This document shows, one piece after another, positions 1,945-55,108 of a stretch of 64,000 nt of DNA. The number at the start of each line of letters is the position of its first letter. Position 1 is the first letter of the stretch. Location of the stretch: IMG/VR virus record IMGVR_UViG_3300035208_002098, positions 1 to 64,000 of that record; one strand, 5' to 3'. Below the pieces are notes generated by a model that did not search any database, was not told the DNA's origin, and saw nothing but the letters and a program-made list of their open reading frames with translations. Origin of the DNA: a virus (Duplodnaviria; Caudoviricetes). A program made the translations under genes and the position numbers.

Positions 1945-1974
1945 TAAAAAAGGTGGAATCCTACATTCCACCTT
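1945..1974 (-). terminator. Intrinsic terminator directly after a solitary CRISPR-like repeat
   Basis: Stem aaggtggaat/attccacctt with an A-run on its left (U-run on - strand). Confidence 0.75.
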
Positions 1975-2001
1975 ATACCTTAATTTGAACCTATTTACAA
2001 C
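1975..2001 (-). repeat. Solitary CRISPR-repeat variant (27 nt)
   Basis: ATACCTTAATTTGAACCTATTTACAAC versus array repeat ATACCTTATTTTGAAACCCATTTACAAC. Confidence 0.8.
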
Positions 2002-23400: not shown

Positions 23401-25278
23401 ATCTTAAAATTGTCTTTCAATTTCCATTCGTTTTAAACAATCTAAAGCTGTTTCCTTTGGTAACATAATATACCCACAACCAGTTGTACCACCCTTCCAA
23501 CTACCTTTACGTTTACCACATTCTTTAGAAAAATGAATATCAATACTTCTATTAACAGTATTAAATAAACTAGTCCATTTTAACCATTTAGGTCTCCATT
23601 CTCTTTCTTCAACATATATTATAGTTGGTATTATTTCACCATCATAAATATCTATATAGTTATAAGTCCAAGATTTTTGTTTTTCCTTCCATTCATCTTC
23701 ATAGAAAGATTTCCTAGTATGTTTAGTCTCGTGTTCCCACGTATCATCTTTAAGCAATATAGATGTTCTAACCCAATCTTTATTAACAAATGGTATTTCC
23801 CATGTCCACCATTTATTACCACCATTCATATTACCTTGCCCACCTCTATATATCCAGAACGTGTTATTATGTATTGCGATACCCCATTTTGGTGAATCAC
23901 ATTCATCAGTCCATTTATTTTTAAATGGTAATATCAGGGTAAGGTTAAAGAATATAATATCTAAATTTATTCTAGGTCTATTATCAAAATAGCCACATGT
24001 TTCAAAGCTGATATCAAATACTTTACTCCAATAAAATACAATAAACTTATTTTGGTAAATCCACTTTTCTTTTATTTTCATATTATTTTTTCTTTTTAGG
24101 TTCCGGCATTGGAACTTCTTCTAGTTTAAATTTTCTATTGTCTCTACCAGCTTGTGGTTTAACAAATGGCCCAGCTATCCATTCACCTTCATTTATAAAG
24201 TAAACATAGTCTGGTATTGTTTTAGTATATCGTGCACCCATAACTTTATTCTCTATTTTGATATAATATCCGTTAATTCTTGTGAGTAAATAAACCCGGC
24301 ACCACTTATCATTTGAATCATGTATTCATCTGTATAACCTCTAGAATATCGTTTTATTAAATCCCAGTCATGTTTTTCAATTGCTCTCAACATACCGGGG
24401 TCTTTACCCCAAAACTCAAACACACCTTCACTTAATTCACCATCACACATACCAGCATTTCGTAGTGCATCATTATCTACATTATGGGCACCAATAAAAT
24501 CAGCCATACCATGTTCAGCTTCCCAAAAATCAATAGGTACTATAACGACAGTTCTTAGGTCTAGACCATATTTTTCTTCGTCATCCAAATAACTTAAATT
24601 ATCAATCGCAAATAATAATTCATTCGCTTTATATATTTTAGTATCTTCATCGTCACCACCAATACCAAAATGTTCTTCGAAATATTTATCTATATCACCC
24701 ATAAGTATATTTGTTTATTTATCCCAAACAGATTTAAATTTAGTTTTTAAAAATTTTAATGTTATATTATTTTGAGTTGAATAATAACAATCATTCTCAA
24801 CATTTTCGAATTCAACCAATAAACTTTCAGCTGGAATATCTTTAAGTAATTCTACTGTTTTATCACCATAGGAATATATACCTTCATACACCGCATTAAT
24901 ATCATTAAACCAACCAGCTAAAATATCGTCAGATGAAATATATTTTCTACTATATTTTTTCCATTGGTTACCACATGTACTACAATGATTTACTTCAGAT
25001 GTATTTATTTTTGAACTACCATATATGCTACCACTACCACAATAAAGTGAGCCTGATACATTACCTTTACCTTCAACGTTTGATATTTTATTTACAATTT
25101 TATTGGAGTTACATAAAGGACATGTCGAGTTATTAATTTTTTCTCGTTCTCTATCATGTTCAATACAAGATGATGCTTTTTTAGTAGCTAAAGCTTTTAA
25201 TACTGAGCAACCATCATCAATAAGTTTTTGTTGTTCTTTACTTAATATATTAAAGAATTTTCTAAATCTACTCATAGC

Positions 25279-26697
25279 TTATAATTTTTCTATTATACCT
25301 TTTCTATTAGTTATTTCTTTACATACTTTTGCTGGTATAAGATTTTTGCCTATATAGATATATGTACCTTGGTTAGCTGTGCCACCACTAATAAGAATTT
25401 GGTTTTTATTAACACTTAAATGTTTACCAGACCAATTTTCAGTTATTTTAATTTTAGCACCTTTCGAGAAATTATAACGAGTTTTTCTAATACTATTATT
25501 ACCTTTGGTAACTTGTTTTCTGGTTCCATCTGGATTTAATATTGGTGTTCTATATTGTCTCAAATTTTCACCATTAGTCGATTTATTTCGTTTTGTTCTA
25601 CCAGAATTTAATACATATCCGGTTTTTATTTCACCATCTCTTGAATCAATATATTTAGCATCTCTAAATGTTTGTAATGCTCTATTGTTTCTACGTTCAC
25701 ACTTAAGATTAATAGTTTCAGATATTTTATCTTTGTCAGTACCACCAGCTATAATAAAAGCATCGTTATGGTGAGATTTCTCAATTTTATTATGAATTCT
25801 ATTAGCTTTAGTAATATAACCGTGTGTATTAGTAATTTCTATATTGGGATATAATTCTCGTAATTGATTAAGAATTCTAGTTTTAATAATATTCATAAAT
25901 GTAGAATCTTTAAAACCTTTAACTTTAAAACCGTTTTTTTGCCAATCTACTAAGAATCCTTTTTCATGGTTTTTAGCTGTATGACATTTTTCACAAAGTG
26001 TTATTAAATTACTTGGTTTATCTGAACCACCATTACGTCTATATATAATATGATGTACGTTTAATACCGGTTTATAGTTTTTATCGTCTTTATGTTTACA
26101 ATCTGGATTTTGACATTTATGGTCATCTCTATGGAGAATATATTCTCTAATATTCCAATATCCTAATTGTTCACCTTGTTGATATTCAACACTAGTAATT
26201 AATGGGTTATTAATTTTCTGAATATCAAAATTAGCCGTTTCTAATATAATTTTAGTTATTGGCAATCTAGTAATTAGTTTATCAATCTGTTTGATATGAG
26301 TATCAAATTTGTGTTGAGTTGATGGTGGTAACCAATTATCTTTTCTAGTTCTAAAATCGAATCGCTTTGCACGATATCTAAGTCTACTCCTTCGTAAGCT
26401 ACGACATCGTTGTTTATCAGATATCAATGATTTGATATCATTACGAAGTTCCAATTCACAACCAAACAATTCTTCTTTAATTGTTAAAGCTGAAATTCCA
26501 ATGAATGAATAACCGGTATCAATACCAAGTGTAATTGGTTGTATGAATTCTGGTGTATCATATAGTAATTTAATAGTAAATGGTTCATGCGAAAAAATTT
26601 CAGCTTTACCATCTTTAATTAATCGCCTAACTTTACCGTATTTTTCGGTTGGCATAAGCGGTTCTCCGTTTTTGTTAAGTACGAATACTTTTTTCAT
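25279..26697 (-). CDS. iscB: IscB RNA-guided endonuclease (PLMP, split RuvC, HNH), CRISPR-associated
   Basis: PLMP motif; RuvC-I GIDTG; Arg-rich bridge helix RSLRRSRLRYRAKRF; RuvC-II LETANFD; HNH VHHI...N..TLCEKCH; RuvC-III SHHNDA; 472 aa. Confidence 0.95.
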   Translation of the reverse strand: MKKVFVLNKNGEPLMPTEKYGKVRRLIKDGKAEIFSHEPFTIKLLYDTPEFIQPITLGIDTGYSFIGISALTIKEELFGCELELRNDIKSLISDKQRCRSLRRSRLRYRAKRFDFRTRKDNWLPPSTQHKFDTHIKQIDKLITRLPITKIILETANFDIQKINNPLITSVEYQQGEQLGYWNIREYILHRDDHKCQNPDCKHKDDKNYKPVLNVHHIIYRRNGGSDKPSNLITLCEKCHTAKNHEKGFLVDWQKNGFKVKGFKDSTFMNIIKTRILNQLRELYPNIEITNTHGYITKANRIHNKIEKSHHNDAFIIAGGTDKDKISETINLKCERRNNRALQTFRDAKYIDSRDGEIKTGYVLNSGRTKRNKSTNGENLRQYRTPILNPDGTRKQVTKGNNSIRKTRYNFSKGAKIKITENWSGKHLSVNKNQILISGGTANQGTYIYIGKNLIPAKVCKEITNRKGIIEKL

Positions 26698-26719
26698 TTT
26701 GTTTTTAATTTAAATTAAT

Positions 26720-26945
26720 AAATAAATCAGGGTCGAAACCCTGTGGTCCACTTTGACAATGTTATAAAAGCTTGTAATTTACCTTCCACTTCTCCGTATA
26801 GGGTTAGAGATGTTTAGTCGGGTAACACATTGCTACAGGCTAGTGGAGCACCGTAGGTGTGATGACTTAAATAACGTAGGTTTCCCTGAGTCATAATTGT
26901 AATCATCGAGAACTTCATTCTCAATTTTAAAAATAAGGTATGTTT
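26720..26945 (-). ncRNA. omegaRNA scaffold with a 5' anti-repeat (tracr-like)
   Basis: - strand contains CTACGTT, ACCTACGG...CTGTAG, TAAAC, ATAACATTG and a terminal CAGGGTTTCGACCCTG hairpin resembling IscB omegaRNAs. Its 5' part ATACCTTATTTT...TTACAAT is complementary to the repeat. Confidence 0.85.
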
Positions 26946-26956
26946 TTAATATTTTT

Positions 26957-27519
26957 ATTCTAATGTTTTATATTTTTAATCCTATTTACAACGGAAAGAC
27001 CTGAGGCGAAAAAATTATGTGTGTTGTTTAATACCTTATTTTGAAACCCATTTACAACACTAACATGTCACAGTAAACAACTTCAACTGTTATTTAATAC
27101 CTTATTTTGAAACCCATTTACAACAAAGACAATAGATTATCAGCAGATTCATTTGTTGTTTAATACCTTATTTTGAAACCCATTTACAACACTAGTTTCT
27201 ATATTATAGAATATTATTCTGTTGTTTAATACCTTATTTTGAAACCCATTTACAACATCATAATGATATACAAAATATTATTGAAGGTTGTTTAATACCT
27301 TATTTTGAAACCCATTTACAACTCCATTGTTGTTTAGTTTAATTTTTTTATTGTTGTTTAATACCTTATTTGAATCCTATTTACAACTGGGATAGAACTT
27401 AATTTTTAAATTAAAACTTGTTTAATACCTTATTTTTGAAACCTATTTACAACTGATAAAGAATATGATAAGGAACTTATTAAATTGTTTAATACCTTAT
27501 TTTGAAACCCATTTACAAC
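26957..27519 (-). CRISPR. CRISPR array: 8 repeats plus 1 degenerate terminal repeat, 8 spacers of 29-30 nt
   Basis: + strand repeat GTTGTTTAATACCTTATTTTGAAACCCATTTACAAC at 27023, 27089, 27155, 27221, 27287, 27353, 27417 and 27484; degenerate copy ends at 26992; 66-nt period. Confidence 0.97.
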
Positions 27520-27571
27520 TCATTCGAGCATCTGAAGAACAACTACTTGTAAATTATTATATAAAACATTA

Positions 27572-27582
27572 TGTCAATGAAC
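27572..27582 (-). promoter_or_regulatory. boxA-like antitermination element in the CRISPR leader
   Basis: GTTCATTGACA on - strand, about 15 nt downstream of the -7 box; identical copies at 32561 and 52901. Confidence 0.65.
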
Positions 27583-27597
27583 TTTTTTATTATACTG

Positions 27598-27629
27598 CAA
27601 AGATAAAGAAAAATAAAATACGATGCAAG
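27598..27629 (-). promoter_or_regulatory. Promoter driving array, omegaRNA and iscB
   Basis: TTG(-33)...TATCTTTG(-7) on - strand. Confidence 0.8.
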
Positions 27630-30600
27630 TATTTTGTAATATTTTTTTTATTTTATTTTAAAATTAAACCCACATTTAGCACCTTCATTAAGTACAAATT
27701 CACATTTCATACCTATATAAGGTTTTATTGATTGTCTTTGAAAAAATCCACTACCACCAACTGATGTAGCATCCATTAATACTTGTTGATAACCTTCATC
27801 ATCAAGACCTCTACTACCTATTTCGAATAGTCTACCATCGTCTAATTTAACATAAGCATCTTTGGTTATTACACCTGTTAATATTTCTTGTTTCATGATA
27901 TATCGTATTCACCATTAAGGTAGTCATGGAAAAATAATAATGCTTTATATCCGGATAATGGATTTAACATACATTTCCTGAAATAATCTAAATTGTCATT
28001 GACTTGTTTATTTGAATATAGGTATACAATATTTTCTTTTTGATATTCTTCAGTAGCATTACATTCTAATTGTTCACGAACTCTAATCATATATTTTTCA
28101 AACATATTATTAATAAGAATATCGTAAGGTGTATTAATAAGATGTTCCAATTCTTCTGTAGTTTCACATGAAAATATATGGCTATCATCAGCATATAATA
28201 ATACATCTTTATTAGATACATCAATATCTTCTAACACACTTAAAACAATACCATTTGGTAATGTAAAAGTAATAACTAACTCACCGTTAGAATCATTTGT
28301 AGACTCTGGTAAGGAATATCCTCTTATAATATCTAAAGTTAAATTCATATTATTTTCTACTATTAATGTAACCTAATCTAAAACCCTCTAGTATTGGATA
28401 TAATATCTTTTCGAATGATGGTGGGTTTTTAATTTTACGCCAAACACTCATTTTAATTATATCATTACTTCTAATTATTGATATTTGTTTTTGATATTTA
28501 AATCTACCACCAGCTAATTCGTCAGTATATGTTTCAAATTTATCACCTAAAGCTTCTTTAATTTTTTCAACATGTTCATCTGTATGAGAATCACCATCAT
28601 CATAACTCATTAAATCTAGAAAGTCTAAATCTGCTTGATTGATGAAAATGTTTTTAAAATTTTCATATGGTTTTAATTCAACCTTATTATCAAGGGGATT
28701 GTATGGCAATTTACTTAGATTAAAACCACTAATTCGCCACTCACCATAATCATTAAAATTTGGTGTTGAAACACCAATATGTAGTAATCGATTATCAACT
28801 ACAAAATACAATGCACCATTGAAGTAAGTAACACCAGCGTGTATATGTTTAATTTCTATATTATTCATATTATTTTCTAGTTTTAATGGTTTCAATAGCC
28901 TTTAATATAGCATCTACTCTACCTTCTTTTGATGTTAGAAAACCTAATGGTGATGTATCTGTTATAGTAGTAGCATAATCATCTAAATCAACTATATCCC
29001 AAGTAAATCTATGTCCAGTTTTATCTGAAACACTTACTAATGTTGGGAAGACATCTACAAATAATTTATGTTTATCTTCTAACCAATCAATAACATCTTG
29101 CCAAGTTGGTGCTGCAACCCAATCATTTTTATATAAATTATTATGAGAAGCTAACCCACTTGACATTTGCGTTTTTGTACAATAATCTATATCATATTCA
29201 AAAGGTTTTTTACTCCCACAAGCATCTTTCATATAAGTAGCAAAACACGGTTCATCAAAACCAAGTTCTTTAAGTTCTTTAGCTATTTGGTATGTAGTAA
29301 ATTTATCTTTCATATTATATAAGTTTTATTTTACCATCAACAATTTCAACATCCCAATCTAATTTAGGTTCGAATGTCTTAAGTATTCTCTTCATACATT
29401 TAGTAAATGTTTCATCATTTTCTTCACGTGAAAGCCATGCCTCACTTATACACTCCCTTAAATTATCTAAGGTATATATTTTATGTTTATTATCTTCTAA
29501 AGCTTGTGTATATCCATCGTAGAAACCAAATTCTTCTTCTTCAAGATAATTTCTTTCATTAGTATAATCAGATGCTAATTTTTCTATATTAACCTCCCCT
29601 ATTAATTCAAGTATTTCTGATAATTTTAAATAGGATTCATCAATTGGTGATGTTGAATGTGTTACTCTTTTGCCACCAGCTAATACATTAAGTTTAGATA
29701 TTTTATCACCAGTATATTTTGATGTATACCAACCTCTACCATGACCATTTAAGCCAATAGCAAAAGTAGCTATAATACAACCATTAATGATTTCAGAATC
29801 ATCAATAATAGCGAATTCACATGAATCAATTCTAATTAATTTCATTGTTTTAATTTAATACATTCTAAACTATCTTTAGTTACATTTGCTACAAACATAC
29901 CACCTTTGGGTCCTTGAAACAATTTATAATGCATACCAGATGTATAATAATCTGTTGCGTATGTACCACACGTCATTGTTTTAACACCACTAATTTCTTC
30001 AGTGGTATCACTAGATTTTTTTGGTTGTGTTTCATATTCATATATTTTAACACCAACAGATATTAAAATGGTTACGATTATACACATGATTAATATAAAA
30101 TATATTTTAAATCCCATTGTATTATATTACTAATTTACATTCTTTTACCCATGATTTACCTTCTAAGTACATACCTAGATTGAAAAACTTATTTTTCTTT
30201 AAGTCAAATATTATCTCGGTACCATCTTGAGGTGTTACTTTTACTTTAAGAGCTTTAACTGGCTCGTTTTTTAATACATCACCGGTAATGATAATGGTAT
30301 CACCTTGTTTAATATCGGTTAATGTGGTTACATCCTTTAATTCCATTTTATTGTGCTATATAAATTGATGTTGGTCGAACATATGATTTAAGTCCAGCCG
30401 AAGCGTCTGCTTGCCAATCTTCAGTATCTGAAATATTTGGTGTGTCATCACATTTGATAGCATAATGTATTTGACATCCAGCTATTATAATATGATTTTT
30501 TTCAGAACCAAGTTTAGCAAACCAATTAGTACTATTTCGATTAGTTTTTATCCCTAAGAATTTATCTTCAAGTATTTCAATTTTACCCCAAGCTGCTCTA

Positions 30601-31137: not shown

Positions 31138-31621
31138 AATATATAATTTTTAGCACCTATAATACACAAATTTTATTAGAATATTGATGCATTATTAAGG
31201 TCTAGCTTGGTTCTCATTAGCATTGATAAATGCGTTTTAGTCTCTAGGTAATAACTCCCGTCTCTAAACCACTAATTCTTTGAACGAACACATTCCCTTA
31301 CCAAAGGGGAACAATACTTCTAGGATTTCTCCATAAGTTGGTTTATCTTAGGTCACACCTTAACAACCATGTTAACTTTTCCACTTACAACTTGTTAAAC
31401 CAAGTTTAGTATCTATTTATACTCTCAATGTTTAGCGAGTGAAGGTTTAAATGCTTAACGTCTATTGTACCTACAAGTAAGACAGTATTAAAATAAGACT
31501 CTTGGCGAGTGTTGCAACACCTGAGAAGGTGATTTAACGGTTATACCAGCAACAGAGCTTGACTATCCATTCAGTAAGTTATCTCGGTTATTCTTACTTA
31601 GAATCTTATTATGTTTTAGTG

Positions 31622-31781
31622 TGGGTAGGTCAGGAGTTGAACCTGAAGGTCTAACCTCGTGTACTTAGAAGTTCAAACAACCTATGACTTTTATTAATAC
31701 TTTGTACTACTTTGTACGCCTACGCCATAGTTTACTTATATTTGTTTATTATCAATGATGACACCATGTCAGTTCCCACCC
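31622..31781 (-). ncRNA. Oversized tRNA-like RNA A (~160 nt)
   Basis: Acceptor GGGTGGG/CCTACCC; T-arm TCAGG-TTCAACT-CCTGA; no canonical anticodon arm. Confidence 0.6.
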
Positions 31782-31798
31782 GAATGTTTTAAAAATAA

Positions 31799-32003
31799 TT
31801 GTGATGACAGGATTCGAACCTGTACAGAAACTGTTCAGTTAGACGATATAACCGTCATGCCTAACCTCTTTGAAGTGCTACATAATGTAAATTATAGGCC
31901 TAGACTTATTAACCAATTTACCCCTCTAATAGTTTATTTTCAAGGTTATCACTATCGTTTCCTCTCAAAGTAGATGCTTTTGGTCTAATTCAGCCACATC
32001 ACA
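31799..32003 (-). ncRNA. Oversized tRNA-like RNA B (~205 nt)
   Basis: Acceptor TGTGATG/CATCACA; D-stem GCT/AGC; T-arm ACAGG-TTCGAAT-CCTGT. Confidence 0.65.
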
Positions 32004-32047
32004 ATTATTATGGTTTTAAGAGCTGTTCAAACACATTTAACTGACAA

Positions 32048-32084
32048 GGTGTAAAAATACCTTAATTTGAAACCTATTTACAAC
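32048..32084 (-). repeat. Solitary CRISPR-repeat variant inside a stem-bounded ncRNA module
   Basis: ggtgtaaaaATACCTTAATTTGAAACCTATTTACAAC, flanked by complementary aagagctgt and acagcactctt. Confidence 0.85.
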
Positions 32085-32124
32085 TCACTAGACAGCACTC
32101 TTTAATTTTAAATTTTAAAAACAA

Positions 32125-32292
32125 TCATAGTAATAGGATTTTAACCTATAAAACAGTTTTCATTAGTTTTTATACTGGGACATTTACGCCAGAGACTTAA
32201 CTGAAAAGTCCGCTACTATTAGTTTCACCCTAGATTCATTTCAAATCTAAATTACACAATGGGATAGTGTCTTTACATTCCACCACACTATA
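32125..32292 (-). ncRNA. Oversized tRNA-like RNA C (~168 nt)
   Basis: TATAGTG-TG-GTGGAATGTAAAGACAC 5' half; degenerate T-arm ATAGG-TTAAAAT-CCTAT; 3' acceptor strand TACTATG. Confidence 0.55.
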
Positions 32293-32560
32293 ATTGTTTA
32301 TATTTTAAAATGATTGATAATCTGACTTCTTATGGCTACAAGATTGTATCAGCTTATGCTGTGTGATAGTATCAATCATTTATATTTTAAAATAGATTTT
32401 GAAAGATATAGGCTTAGTCTCTTCATCCTTATTCTGGCGAGATACTGTGAGAGTTGAGTATTTCTACTACATTACTAACCATCGTACTTATCTAACTCAA
32501 TAGACCTTTTCTTAATCTTCTCACGAAGATATTATCTATTTTATATTTTTTATTTTATTC

Positions 32561-32622
32561 TGTCAATGAACTTTGTACTTTTAACTACACTGCAAAGATA
32601 AAATTATTTTTAACATATGCAA
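32561..32622 (-). promoter_or_regulatory. Promoter plus boxA-like element heading ncRNA cluster 1
   Basis: TTG...TATCTTTG (-7 box at 32593-32600), then GTTCATTGACA at 32561-32571. Confidence 0.7.
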
Positions 32623-32639
32623 GTATTTTAGATAAAAAA

Positions 32640-32939
32640 TTATGGGTGTTTAAAATAAATTTTTTTAACTATTCTCCCATTTTCTTCCTTTTCTTTTTCG
32701 TGTGATATATCTTGTAAATATTTATCGATAGCTAATTTAGCTTTCTCTAAAGAATAAAAATTATTCCTACCAAATATATCATCATTTAAATTTTCCCAAA
32801 ATAAAAAATCTACTATAAAGAAGGTCCACCCAAATATAGGAATAGCGTATATAAACCAACTTACATCCGAACCTTTTTTTTGCGTTATATAAGTTTCTTT
32901 ACCATCTTTGGTAATTTTTAAGACTATCCTTGTTTTCAT
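32640..32939 (-). CDS. Paralog 2 of the TRI...HP family
   Basis: MKTRI...PIFGW...AKLAIDKY...FKHP. Confidence 0.7.
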   Translation of the reverse strand: MKTRIVLKITKDGKETYITQKKGSDVSWFIYAIPIFGWTFFIVDFLFWENLNDDIFGRNNFYSLEKAKLAIDKYLQDISHEKEKEENGRIVKKIYFKHP

Positions 32940-37903: not shown

Positions 37904-38545
37904 TCAATTAAACTTATTTATCTCTATGTAAGTCTCATCTTCTTGTTTCACTCTTACTTTACTTTTTAGGGGAGTAAACTCCTTGTCATCCATAATTGGT
38001 AAGTCCACAAGCGTATATTCGGACAAACGTTGCCCTATTTTATTTTCATTATATAATCTGTTACCTTCATACTCTATATTAATACTTGCATTAACATCCC
38101 TATCAATTTCTAACCCACAATTATCACACTTATATATCCTATCTGATAACTTTAAGTTATATTTGATGTTTCCACAACAACTACATTTCTTTGATGATGG
38201 ATACCATCTACTAACTAAAACCATTTCTCTACCATACCATTTAGACTTATATTCAATTTGTTTTCTCATTTCATATAAACCTAATTCAGCGATAGCTTTA
38301 CTTAATTTATGATTTATCATCATTCCACTAACATTTAAATCTTCTAATATAATTATTTGGTTCTCTTTAACTATTTTAGTTGTTATGTTATGAAGGTAAT
38401 CTAACCTCTGATTCTTTATTTTTTCATGTTTTCTGGCTAATTTTAATTTACTTTTATATCTATTATTACTACGACTATTGATAGTCCAATAAAAATGTTT
38501 CTTTTTTTCATATTTATAATTTATTAAATTTCTTCTAATATCCAA
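37904..38545 (-). pseudogene. tnpB: 5'-truncated TnpB (RuvC-II, Zn finger and RuvC-III only)
   Basis: ILEDLNVSGM, PSSKKCSCCG...CDNCG and DRDVNASINI present; RuvC-I and the N-terminal half are missing. Confidence 0.85.
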
Positions 38546-44246: not shown

Positions 44247-45494
44247 TCAACTAGTGGTGTACTTTTTGTGCCTATCAATGTCGCTTTCCATGTGAACTAT
44301 ATCTATCTCTTTAGGTATAGATACTTCGGAAGTCAATACTCCTACTAACGTAGGCAGCTCGTTCCGATTTTTAAGTCTAAGTTCCTTAGACAAGTTTATT
44401 AATGCGAATGATTTGATATTGTTGCTTGCTAACAAGTCTCTATTGTGTGTTGTATGACAAGATTGACAAGTCCAAATTCTATCACTAAGTTTTAATTCTT
44501 TGTTTACCACACCACAAGTGCACATTCTACTACTTGGTTCAAATTGACCTATACGTAATTGATTACAACCATACCACTCAGATTTATAATCAAGCATTTC
44601 ATTGAATTTGCCAATAGCAATATCTGATAATGCTTGAGCAAGTTTATGATTCTTAATCATATTACTTGGTTTTAGTGTTTCAAGGCAAATAGTATCATAA
44701 TTTGTAGTTAAGTAATGACTTATTTTGTGCAAGAAATCCTCACGTTTATTAGCAACTTGTTCATGTAACAAAGCTATTCTTTCTTTTGTTCTTTTACCTT
44801 TAAATCTTGAATATTTACTTTGAGTGTATTTTAATTTACTCATAGCTTTTTTAAGATATTTAGGGTTTTCAATTTCTATCCCATTAGATAATACAGCAAA
44901 TGTTTTAATTCCTAAATCAATTCCAATAGCTTGGTTTTCACTAATTGGTTTCTTGGTAGGTATTTCTTCATTAACTTCTACTAATATAGAAATATAATAC
45001 TTCCCAGTAGGTGTTTTACTGATTGTAGATGTTTTTATAATTCCGTCAAAAACTCTATGTAATTTTACTCTTATCCCTTTTTTGAATTTAGGTATGTGTA
45101 TTTCTTCGTTACACAAGTCAATTTTTGTATGTTGTGGTATACTGAAAGATTGTGAATTATTGTGCTTTGATTTGAAGTTAGGGAATCCTTTTTTATCTCT
45201 AAAGAATTTAGTAAATGCGTTGTCTAAATTTTCTAAAGCTGATTGTAATGTTTGTGAATTAACTTCTTTCAACCAACAAGTGGCTTCATTATTTTTAAGA
45301 ATAGGTAAATTCTTTTGAATATCAAATCGACTAATAGTTTTCTTATCTAACTGATATGATTTAACTTTAAGGTCTAACCCATAATTGTAAATATAACGGC
45401 TACAACCAATGTGCATAGCAATTAGCTGCTTTTGTTCTTTGGTTGGATATAGACGATATTTATAAGCTTTATAAATCATAATGCAAATATACAA
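44247..45494 (-). CDS. tnpB: Full-length TnpB (IS200/IS605 OrfB); probable start MIYKAYKYRLYP at ~45479
   Basis: KAYKYRLYPT HTH, GIDLG RuvC-I, LETL RuvC-II, Zn finger and RDLLASNNI RuvC-III. Confidence 0.93.
   Translation of the reverse strand: MYICIMIYKAYKYRLYPTKEQKQLIAMHIGCSRYIYNYGLDLKVKSYQLDKKTISRFDIQKNLPILKNNEATCWLKEVNSQTLQSALENLDNAFTKFFRDKKGFPNFKSKHNNSQSFSIPQHTKIDLCNEEIHIPKFKKGIRVKLHRVFDGIIKTSTISKTPTGKYYISILVEVNEEIPTKKPISENQAIGIDLGIKTFAVLSNGIEIENPKYLKKAMSKLKYTQSKYSRFKGKRTKERIALLHEQVANKREDFLHKISHYLTTNYDTICLETLKPSNMIKNHKLAQALSDIAIGKFNEMLDYKSEWYGCNQLRIGQFEPSSRMCTCGVVNKELKLSDRIWTCQSCHTTHNRDLLASNNIKSFALINLSKELRLKNRNELPTLVGVLTSEVSIPKEIDIVHMESDIDRHKKYTTS
44272..44400 (-). ncRNA. TnpB reRNA/omegaRNA 3' region and guide
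   Basis: GAAG-TATCTAT...ATAGATA hairpin, then GTTCAC (44292-44297), resembling an IS200/IS605 right end; predicted guide ATGGAAAGCGACATTGATAG. Confidence 0.6.
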
Positions 45495-51675: not shown

Positions 51676-51803
51676 TAGGATGAATAGGATTCGAACCTAT
51701 AATGTGTTGCCCGTAAGACGCTTGGTTGCGGAGCAGTGCTATTTCACAACGCTTACTCTATTACTCTCTCAGGACTCGTGTATACCAATTCCACCACCAC
51801 CCT
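51676..51803 (-). ncRNA. Oversized tRNA-like RNA E (~128 nt)
   Basis: AGGGTGGTGGTGGAATTGGTATACAC ... ATAGGTTCGAATCCTATTCATCCTA. Confidence 0.65.
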
Positions 51804-52026: not shown

Positions 52027-52097
52027 TGCTGCGAATAGGACTCGAACCTACATCCTGAAGTATTTCCCTCCCTGTTCTACCATTAAACTACCGCATC
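52027..52097 (-). tRNA. Normal-length tRNA-like gene with non-canonical anticodon loop (pseudo-tRNA)
   Basis: GATGCGG-TA-GTTTAATGGTAGAAC...GTAGGTTCGAGTCCTAT-TCGCAGC-A; loop GGAAATA lacks U33. Confidence 0.55.
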
Positions 52098-52252: not shown

Positions 52253-52294
52253 GTTGTTTTAAAAATATATCTTAATTTGAAATCTATTTACAAC
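52253..52294 (-). repeat. Solitary 42-nt CRISPR-repeat variant
   Basis: GTTGTTTTAAAAATATATCTTAATTTGAAATCTATTTACAAC on + strand. Confidence 0.8.
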
Positions 52295-52508: not shown

Positions 52509-52550
52509 GTTGTTTTCAAAATATACCTTAATTTCAAACCTATTTACAAC
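52509..52550 (-). repeat. Solitary 42-nt CRISPR-repeat variant
   Basis: GTTGTTTTCAAAATATACCTTAATTTCAAACCTATTTACAAC on + strand. Confidence 0.85.
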
Positions 52551-52917: not shown

Positions 52918-53050
52918 TGCCCGTAGGAGGACTCGAACCTCCATGGTTTTGTTTTATATCATCACGTTAATGACTTTATTATAAACCGTATCCCACGTTC
53001 AAGGCTTGCAATCCCATCCTGTGTAGCTTTACCAATTTGCTTATACGGGC
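52918..53050 (-). ncRNA. Oversized tRNA-like RNA G (~133 nt)
   Basis: Perfect acceptor GCCCGTA/TACGGGC; D-arm AGC-AAATTGGTAAA-GCT; T-arm GGAGG-TTCGAGT-CCTCC. Confidence 0.7.
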
Positions 53051-53195: not shown

Positions 53196-53441
53196 TTATT
53201 TAATAGGTAGTTTATTTAAATATTCTATTAAACCACCAACGTTTTTAATTGCTTCAGCATCTTCATCAGAAATATTTACTTTAAGCTCCTTTTCTATACG
53301 CATTACTAATTCTATACCATCAATACTATCGAAACCTAAATCATTATAGAAATCGGCATTATCAACAATATCTTCTAATTCAAGGCCACTATAATCAAGT
53401 ATAATACCCCTAACTTTTTTTCCTAATTCTTCTTTATTCAT
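53196..53441 (-). CDS. acpP: Acyl carrier protein
   Basis: DLGFDSID phosphopantetheine-attachment motif; 81 aa, acidic. Confidence 0.9.
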   Translation of the reverse strand: MNKEELGKKVRGIILDYSGLELEDIVDNADFYNDLGFDSIDGIELVMRIEKELKVNISDEDAEAIKNVGGLIEYLNKLPIK

Positions 53442-53492: not shown

Positions 53493-53530
53493 TTTTCAAA
53501 ATATACCTTAATTTGAAATCTCTTTACAAC
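53493..53530 (-). repeat. Solitary CRISPR-repeat variant just downstream of a promoter
   Basis: TTTTCAAAATATACCTTAATTTGAAATCTCTTTACAAC; -7 box at 53553-53560. Confidence 0.8.
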
Positions 53531-55108
53531 TGCATTATGTTTGATTATAATGCAAAGATAATATAAAAAATTAACATATTCAAGTAAAACGGTAAATATT
53601 TTATCCGTGAATTAAAGTTTTTTTAGGCTCCGATTTAACTACTTTATTGTTATTATAAGAATTACCTTTAAATAACATACTACATAAGAAATTAAGTTCC
53701 CATGCTTGGAATAATGTTATTGTTTTAAGACCGAATAATGTTGGCATTAACCAATCCCATAATAACATAACCGGAATAGATGATAATGCAGCTACTAATA
53801 CTATAAGTATAATACCACCTAAAAACCCAGTTATACCGAGTATAATGTTTTCTTTCATTTGTTTTAATTTATTTTAAAATTTTAATTGCTTTTCTAATAT
53901 TTTTAATTGTAATTGTTCTTTCTTTATTCCACTTGATAAACTTATCTTCTACCCATTGTTCGGTACCGCTTCTTTTATACCTAGTGTAAAATTTTTTACG
54001 GTCATCTAATAATTTATTTAAATGTTCCTCTAATATTTGTATAGCTGTCATATTACGTTATTTATATAATCTATCTCTATTATATTTGACAATATCATTT
54101 ATTGGTAAATAATTTTCTTTAATTAATTCTAAAGAATTTGGTTCGTCAATATATTGATTTACAATTTCAGCGAATTTAATATTTGATTCAGTAATTTCAT
54201 CATATGTACCATCAATACATTCTAATATAGCTTCTTCATATTCACTAATAAACATATCAGTATGAAAACCATTTAACCCATATTTTTCAACAAATTGATG
54301 TGCGTAGCACCAAATACAGATACATATTTTTTCACGTAATAAATATACCAAATTTGAATCTACTATAAATCTATCAAAACCATATAATCCATCACCACAA
54401 CCATGACCTAACATAATAATTCTATCATGTTCTTTGATTAGTTTCTTCAAACCAGAATTTGATGGATTCCAGTCAATGACTTCCCAACCCTTGTTAGCAT
54501 ATATAGCTTTTAAGAAATCGGTTGATGTATCTTTTGGATGTATAACTAATGTTTTCATTATATATAATTTAATTACTTATGCAAATATAATACTATTATT
54601 TAATATATCCAAATATTTTATTAAATATTTTTAAAAAGGTAAATATTCTTTTTTAGGTATTGGTTCTAATTTAGTTCTTAATTCACTAGAAGTTATAAAT
54701 AATTTACCAATCCAGAAACCATAGCTACCACCATTATCGGCAACCTTAAAGAAGCCTCAGGGACCTGAACCAATTTAAGATTCGATTTTTTTCTCCTAAT
54801 GGATATGACCATTTGCCTGTGATTAGAAAGCAAAAAGGTATTCCAATAAGCATTAAAATCATCAATGAAATTGCAAATGGTAGCGTAAATCTCATCCACG
54901 TTTTAACAGGCGTTTTTTCATCGGTATAAAAATCAACACCTAATTCAATCCACCTATCACACATATCTTCACTTGATACTTTATTTAGTTCAGGGAAAAT
55001 TTCTCTGAATTTTGGGATGTAATTCGCATCGTTGTGAGACCAAGTTCTTTTTAATTTTCTGTACATTTTATTTAGTTTTTAAGTTTAAAATTCGATTGAT
55101 AAAAGGCA

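Follow-up and report, generated by a model that had tools for sequence, protein, structure and literature searches.

A probable CRISPR-associated IscB cassette in a large phage with a putative Bacteroidota host

IscB is a small, ancestor-type relative of Cas9. The first 64,000 nucleotides (nt) of the virus record IMGVR_UViG_3300035208_002098 (Caudoviricetes; this whole stretch is called the window below) encode an IscB on the minus strand, downstream of a CRISPR array. The locus raises the question of whether array and nuclease are one RNA-guided system and, if so, what a phage would use it for. With a probability of roughly 0.8, we read it as a functional CRISPR-associated IscB that a large Bacteroidota phage carries in an accessory cassette. 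That the array and IscB form one system is supported, at the level of sequence, because repeat and anti-repeat co-vary and stay with iscB in relatives.

The original prediction described a promoter, a boxA, an array, an omegaRNA and iscB in one minus-strand unit, and all of these parts were located. Related loci are given L numbers.

27597-27628, minus strand: Bacteroidota -33/-7 promoter, predicted +1 at 27593
27572-27582, minus strand: boxA-like motif in the array leader, a motif match with a putative antitermination role
27520-27549, minus strand: possible first guide (a ninth), leader-derived, 5' of the first repeat, role putative
27023-27519, minus strand: CRISPR array of 8 repeats (35-37 nt) and 7 spacers (29-30 nt), period 66
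26993-27022, minus strand: eighth spacer, different from the L013 spacer at the equivalent place
26957-26992, minus strand: degenerate terminal repeat with its 5' part kept, half-conserved, also in L013
26925-26941, minus strand: anti-repeat (upper stem), an inverted match to the repeats, with a compensatory change in L013
26908-26922, minus strand: hairpin between upper and lower stem in the cofold; relatives have a hairpin of different sequence there
26896-26902, minus strand: lower stem, pairing with the first 7 nt of the repeat
26728-26895, minus strand: omegaRNA (HEARO) core, including the 3' terminal hairpin 26728-26743
25279-26697, minus strand: iscB, 472 aa, catalytic residues intact, REC insertion absent

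The array has the regular 36+30-nt geometry and eight distinct spacers that had been predicted: its repeats keep a period of 66, all eight spacers (29-30 nt each) differ from one another, and the degenerate repeat closes the series. Sequence variants occur in the three promoter-side repeats, and the terminal repeat pairs weakly with the anti-repeat (-6.0 kcal/mol). One spacer (27323-27352) resembles an A-rich 5' leader followed by a start codon and may derive from a gene start. The boxA-like motif has eight copies on the cassette's strand, all in tRNA, non-coding or array regions, and three on the other strand; a similar motif is found in the array leaders of L003, L030, L034 and L041. The scaffold gives a full-length match to Rfam HEARO (RF02033) at 26741-26941 on the minus strand (E 2.7e-10), its 57.3 bits lying under the gathering score of 83, and across the clade described below, 32 of the core RNA's 48 predicted pairs have changed on both sides. 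Its lower stem is equivalent to the guide adaptor hairpin of the classic omegaRNA (PMC9640706). The locus thus has two sequence features of a CRISPR-associated IscB, namely an array joined to an omegaRNA locus and an anti-repeat that pairs with the repeat.

The protein is a compact IscB by its PLMP N-terminus, split RuvC, bridge helix, inserted HNH and size within 400-500 aa, with Pfam matches to RRXRR (E 6.6e-56) and HNH (E 2.7e-10). RuvC residues D60, E153, H309 and D312 align with D61, E193, H340 and D343 of OgeuIscB, and the HNH residues H215/H216, N230 and H239 are present and invariant in 10 relatives. Only 17 residues separate the bridge helix from the W-L-P-P-S motif, and therefore no REC insertion is present, so that the predicted 472-aa, catalytically intact and REC-less protein is borne out. 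The AlphaFold model is middling (predicted local distance difference test 69.6, predicted template modelling score 0.50); a structure search with it placed IscB at the top (E 5e-26) and type II-D Cas9 far weaker (E 2e-9). Between iscB and its L013 counterpart (74% protein identity, 470 codons), the ratio of nonsynonymous to synonymous substitution rates (dN/dS) is 0.24. This value indicates purifying selection, which supports a working gene.

The immediate surroundings do not resemble an intact insertion sequence (IS) element. The next gene starts after three bases (25276-25278) rather than the 4 bp first read, but the point made from it holds, as no room is left for an IS end. Membership of IS200/IS605 is further contradicted by the lack of a Y1_Tnp (tnpA) match in the 248-kb record, which is about 70% complete, a scope that applies to all record-wide absences given here. 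The predicted absence of tnpA, cas1 and cas2 from the window also extends to that whole record, where cas4 was not found either.

Relatives tie the array to the nuclease. The closest IscB homologues (protein identity 36-74%) were traced to their contigs, which, like the genes flanking the loci, look phage-like. Ten further loci each have a repeat sequence of their own and a correspondingly altered anti-repeat, with 14-32 of 36 positions identical between pairs of full-length repeats. The pairing plan is shared: the repeat's opening 5-7 nt bind the bases just before the conserved core, a hairpin intervenes, and the scaffold's 5' end is paired with the middle-to-3' part of the repeat. Over all 11 loci, cognate duplexes have a mean energy of -23.5 kcal/mol, against -12.3 +/- 3.5 kcal/mol for non-cognate ones, in a set where two repeats are partial and two were assembled from neighbouring copies, with contigs breaking at arrays. 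The cognate duplex is the best in 9 of 11 loci (the exceptions being the window locus and L013), and none of 100,000 permutations reached the observed cognate sum. Arrays that occur without iscB in relatives would have pointed to chance adjacency; instead, in relatives the array, the anti-repeat and iscB stay with one another. At L034 two degenerate repeat-like units are present, and no repeat is visible in the 394 nt available for L038. After the last repeat of L011, a second anti-repeat-like sequence occurs at 103-135.

The protein tree further defines this group. A core clade of 15 proteins has a Shimodaira-Hasegawa (SH) support of 0.99 and a FastTree bootstrap of 94/100, and a wider group of 23 proteins, which adds L030 and zinc-finger proteins, has an SH support of 0.99 and a bootstrap of 45/100. 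Some wider-group proteins have a zinc-finger insertion after the bridge helix. The nearest tree neighbours and outgroups are IS-type IscBs with classic omegaRNAs: at 15 of 15 outgroup viral loci the classic 5' stem is present and an array absent, and the clade loci lack that stem. Calling the protein an IscB-to-Cas9-like intermediate therefore went too far, as it is an ordinary REC-less IscB with IS-type outgroups. Within the wider group, L030 (5986-8440) encodes a 529-aa IscB with the zinc-finger insertion in a 675-kb virus record that is 98% complete and in which cas1 was not found, and L038 (1-2467) encodes a 690-aa IscB with a long C-terminal insertion. At L040 (15816-18957), the element with P0121 also has, some 7 kb away from the IscB locus, cas6 and cas3 as well as a Cas7fv-like gene.

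The clade contains two forms of guide RNA. At L010, L011, L012, L033, L036 and L041, a -7 element lies between array and scaffold, with a predicted +1 at most 2 nt from the start of the anti-repeat. A scaffold RNA that starts at the anti-repeat has no guide of its own and must load CRISPR RNAs (crRNAs) in trans, which is the layout of a trans-activating CRISPR RNA (tracrRNA). At the window locus, L003, L013, L030 and L039, no -7 element occurs between array and scaffold, and therefore the two are probably co-transcribed. For the RNA at 26720-26945, no internal promoter is predicted at the window locus; a sigma-70 scan was also tried and discarded, as it ran at chance level and used the wrong promoter type for this record. 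Gene order varies as well: L030 runs iscB, array, scaffold, and at L012 repeats flank iscB on both sides, the first downstream repeat overlapping its last codons. In DelIscB, array and scaffold are described as one transcript, and the same paper leaves open whether that RNA is split (PMC12660989). Our literature search, whose reach did not extend to Altae-Tran 2021, returned no description of a phage clade in which joined guides occur alongside promoter-split ones.

The unit is an accessory cassette of 2.4 kb, as indicated by a related contig.

25267-27647, no strand assigned: extent of the accessory cassette, from the empty site in a related contig

In this contig (run X3, about 97% alike over 767 nt), position 25266 is joined to 27648 by 31 other letters, so that what is lacking there coincides almost exactly with the predicted unit. 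Read on the minus strand, the upstream stop lies one base before a start codon in frame with the downstream gene, which has ten codons there where the window has three. The evidence comes from a single contig at depth 5 with an anchor of 27 nt, and a chance join appears unlikely because the junction is in frame. In L013, the iscB stop adjoins DNA that is 82.5% alike to 53058-52911 of the record, a non-coding cluster with three solitary repeats. Judged from these two contigs, the cassette has therefore occupied at least two places in related phages. The description of the IscB as domesticated is accordingly too strong, since the cassette is missing from one relative and lies elsewhere in another.

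Five solitary repeats lie outside the array.

53493-53530, minus strand: solitary repeat, 18 nt behind its own promoter, +1 at 53548
52509-52550, minus strand: solitary 42-nt repeat within a non-coding RNA cluster
52253-52294, minus strand: solitary 42-nt repeat in the cluster shared with 52509-52550
32049-32084, minus strand: solitary repeat in a second non-coding cluster
1974-2001, minus strand: solitary partial repeat, followed by a terminator-like hairpin

All five are in transcribed orientation, and shuffled patterns yield almost none. They are closer to the L013 repeat than to the local array; duplexes with the anti-repeat reach -13.8 to -15.7 kcal/mol for three of them and are weak for the other two. 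They could either serve as single-guide genes or be left over from an earlier cassette position. The 5' segment at 53531-53556 ends with 8 nt complementary to the -7 region of its own promoter, so that a hairpin or self-regulation is possible. A phage acyl carrier protein gene (53196-53441, minus strand) lies directly behind the repeat at 53493-53530. The window also has two tnpB genes on the minus strand, at 37904-38545 (5'-truncated) and 44247-45494 (415 aa, own promoter). No arrays were found near either, and a role of the solitary repeats as tnpB guides is unsupported.

The setting is a large phage. The record is linear, 248,412 bp long with 27.7% G+C, and has a gp23-type capsid match and 48 tRNA genes. 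Sites of the form TTG...TAnnTTTGC number 38, the cassette promoter among them, with 36 on the minus strand, whereas shuffles give 5.2 +/- 2.5; the Bacteroidota -33/-7 consensus, with G at -5, is known (PMC6847099). From this excess of promoter sites we infer a Bacteroidota host. None of 1,138 Bacteroidota II-C spacers matched the record over their full length, and therefore no host was called from them. Near-identical DNA is present in a landfill and a groundwater metagenome from two studies, one of which may be the sample that the record was drawn from.

CRISPR-associated IscB is a known kind of system, reportedly described by Altae-Tran and colleagues in 2021, and the window locus belongs to a phage family within it whose guide RNA is joined or split. 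Independent IscB-CRISPR associations (PMC10734277) and viral HEARO loci (PMC9755519) were already known. DelIscB (457 aa, target-adjacent motif (TAM) NAC; PMC12660989) shares with the window locus a compact IscB, an upstream non-coding RNA with array, repeat and anti-repeat, and the lack of adjacent adaptation genes. Compared by description with DelIscB and the 2021 clusters, the present loci differ in being phage-borne and accessory, at varied positions and with a Bacteroidota promoter; the window has solitary repeats, and relatives have a separately promoted tracr-like scaffold. The IS200/IS605 IscB-omegaRNA systems (OgeuIscB, RF02033) have the same protein domains, catalytic residues and omegaRNA core. 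Here, however, repeat:anti-repeat pairing replaces the guide adaptor hairpin, guides come from an array, the window has no tnpA and no space for a 3' IS end, and the empty site has a 31-letter replacement.

Type II-D Cas9d (PMC9755519, PMC12339737) also combines an array with a tracrRNA and an HNH inside RuvC, often without cas1 and cas2. It measures about 600 aa or more, whereas the 472-aa window protein keeps PLMP and the full omegaRNA core and has no REC; a separate tracrRNA is not seen at the window locus but is seen in six relatives. TranC, including the phage-borne CauTranC9 (bioRxiv 10.64898/2026.03.27.714800), offers another array-recruited transposon nuclease whose RNA was split before the protein grew; those systems are TnpB-derived (type V side) and the window's is an IscB, for which no phage target was found. 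The adaptation-less type VI-B array of Flavobacterium columnare (PMC8092290) likewise has 36-nt repeats with a 5' GTTGT end like II-C and no cas1 or cas2 of its own. The window nuclease, by contrast, is a phage-encoded and predicted DNA-cutting IscB, and its loading in trans is only inferred. Unlike adaptive type II CRISPR, the window record yielded no cas1 or cas2 of its own. The system thus resembles a minimal type II system and is neither a Cas9d nor an intact IS element. The locus appears to run parallel to the path that led to Cas9, and nothing places it on the Cas9 lineage.

A mechanism can be proposed on this basis. Host RNA polymerase would make a single transcript that starts at about 27593, crosses array and omegaRNA and probably includes iscB. 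Each spacer-repeat unit would pair with the anti-repeat at the omegaRNA 5' end through a 7-bp lower stem, an inserted hairpin and a 12-16-bp upper stem, rebuilding the helix of a one-piece omegaRNA. Host RNase III may process the RNA, or pairing in cis could make RNase III dispensable. IscB would then cut TAM-flanked double-stranded DNA with about 16 nt of repeat-adjacent spacer; DelIscB, which has the same layout, cuts DNA with 16-nt guides (PMC12660989).

The spacers may be supplied by a host. Spacers vary among relatives, as seen in the last spacer of L013 and a new repeat-spacer-repeat in X3, and the arrays of L040-L042 are of unequal length, which may reflect loss or assembly collapse. 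The comparison of arrays that had been proposed as a check on spacer turnover thus yielded different spacers but no polarised gain. Over its first 21 nt, the repeat agrees with Bacteroidota II-C repeats at 16-19 positions, in a search whose pattern was designed for this likeness and which shows resemblance, not origin. Two II-C-like arrays that were checked lie beside cas9 and cas1, with cas2 also confirmed at one. The II-C Cas1 of F. columnare acts in trans to load an array whose 36-nt repeats have only the 5' end in common with II-C repeats (PMC8092290). By this analogy, loading in trans by a host's II-C Cas1-Cas2 is slightly favoured. On the analogy of the arrays of Cas9d and CauTranC9, the system may be directed at competing phages or plasmids, and co-infecting phages or other mobile DNA are on balance the probable targets.

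Several observations weigh against this picture. The window duplex, at -15.8 kcal/mol, is among the two weakest of the clade and is reached by 5 of 200 shuffles, and the window repeat scores equally with the L010 segment. In metagenome runs of two studies the pieces compared are unchanged, with no acquisition seen in the window's phage. Most Bacteroidota II-C repeats found are 46-47 nt long, not 36, and no host array with the window's repeat was found. The growing end of the array is ambiguous, since damaged repeats lie on the promoter side (as in L003 and L030) and a fixed truncated repeat lies opposite. Finally, no protospacer was found for any spacer in any collection searched, and hence no TAM and no direct trace of the system at work.

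The search for targets and a TAM suggested with the original prediction therefore came back empty over phage, plasmid and genome collections. INPHARED phages and PLSDB plasmids gave no target, nor did exact IMG/VR scans of three spacers. Neither the record itself nor the relatives' loci held one, the longest repeat-side self-match being 11 nt. Among 401 Bacteroidota genomes nothing rose above chance (best 26/30, with repeat-side mismatches, for an A/T-rich spacer), and the flanks of solitary repeats gave chance-level matches in 151 genomes. A match of the L030 array in a Flavobacterium phage lies mostly over the repeat, inside a gene, and was taken as chance. The exact repeat is absent from the viral and genome collections searched, and an omegaRNA motif scan of metagenomes returned one locus, which is unrelated.

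The mobility of the cassette suggests another use, in which the nuclease would spread the cassette selfishly by cutting cassette-free co-infecting relatives, with the array widening its range. The empty site in a relative about 97% alike, the other position in L013 beside DNA homologous to 53058-52911 and the repeats on both sides of iscB in L012 are all consistent with such homing, and a role of IS-element IscB in element retention is known (PMC10734277). It is nonetheless unlikely, since no spacer matches the record's DNA beyond those 11 repeat-side nt, none by eye fits the empty junction with its repeat-side end, the insertion was not clean (it replaced ten codons of the next gene), and tnpA was not found in the record.

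Less probable again is that the guides repress or cut host genes, the solitary repeats being fixed single-guide genes. Their position in transcribed non-coding regions would fit, as would the promoter and 18-nt 5' segment of one of them and the pairing of three with the anti-repeat, which is roughly as good as that of damaged array repeats. Spacers are not conserved among relatives, however, and the 401 and 151 sampled Bacteroidota genomes held no above-chance match, a weak test as the host species is not identified. Slightly less likely still is use of the last spacer only, in cis, as a single-piece omegaRNA, with the remaining array as a decaying by-product. The terminal repeat does retain its lower-stem bases and folds in cis with the scaffold, and three upstream repeats are damaged; but the anti-repeat fits the full repeats and not the terminal one (-15.8 versus -6.0 kcal/mol), and the scaffolds of six relatives carry no guide themselves. 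That an IS-derived iscB and an orphan array became neighbours by chance would fit the facts that phages often carry one of the two alone and that the record also holds tnpB genes. It is very improbable given the co-variation across 11 loci, the disappearance of the classic 5' stem precisely where repeats come in, and the joint absence of array and iscB at the empty site.

Other features of the region were also recorded. An Acb3 family inhibitor of the cyclic oligonucleotide-based antiphage signalling system (CBASS) is encoded at 23404-24081 on the minus strand (Pfam E 4.2e-37), 1.2 kb downstream of iscB. Three tRNA-like genes on the minus strand (51676-51803, 52027-52097 and 52918-53050) score over the Rfam gathering score and were missed by ARAGORN; two of them have about 55-60 extra nt, and the element at 52918 is kept in L013. 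A 1.5-kb non-coding operon (31140-32640, minus strand) has a promoter, a boxA-like motif and tRNA-like 3' ends, with no match in Rfam or ARAGORN.

The preferred reading, a working CRISPR-associated IscB in an accessory phage cassette, has a wider implication that we hold only tentatively, as somewhat improbable in its entirety. Bacteroidota phages may host an independent and ongoing replay of the path from IscB to Cas9, with joined loci, split loci and a sister group whose proteins gained a zinc-finger insertion at the REC position, together with loading by host II-C Cas1-Cas2, inter-phage use and solitary-repeat guides. The change from a one-piece omegaRNA to crRNA and tracrRNA is an open step in the origin of Cas9. 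Within the clade, related proteins of 470-500 aa occur naturally with joined and with split guides, and eleven matched repeat/anti-repeat sets are available, so that the step to split guides becomes testable by part swaps. The clade is also a source of compact candidate nucleases and a possible case of programmable phage weapons without adaptation genes.

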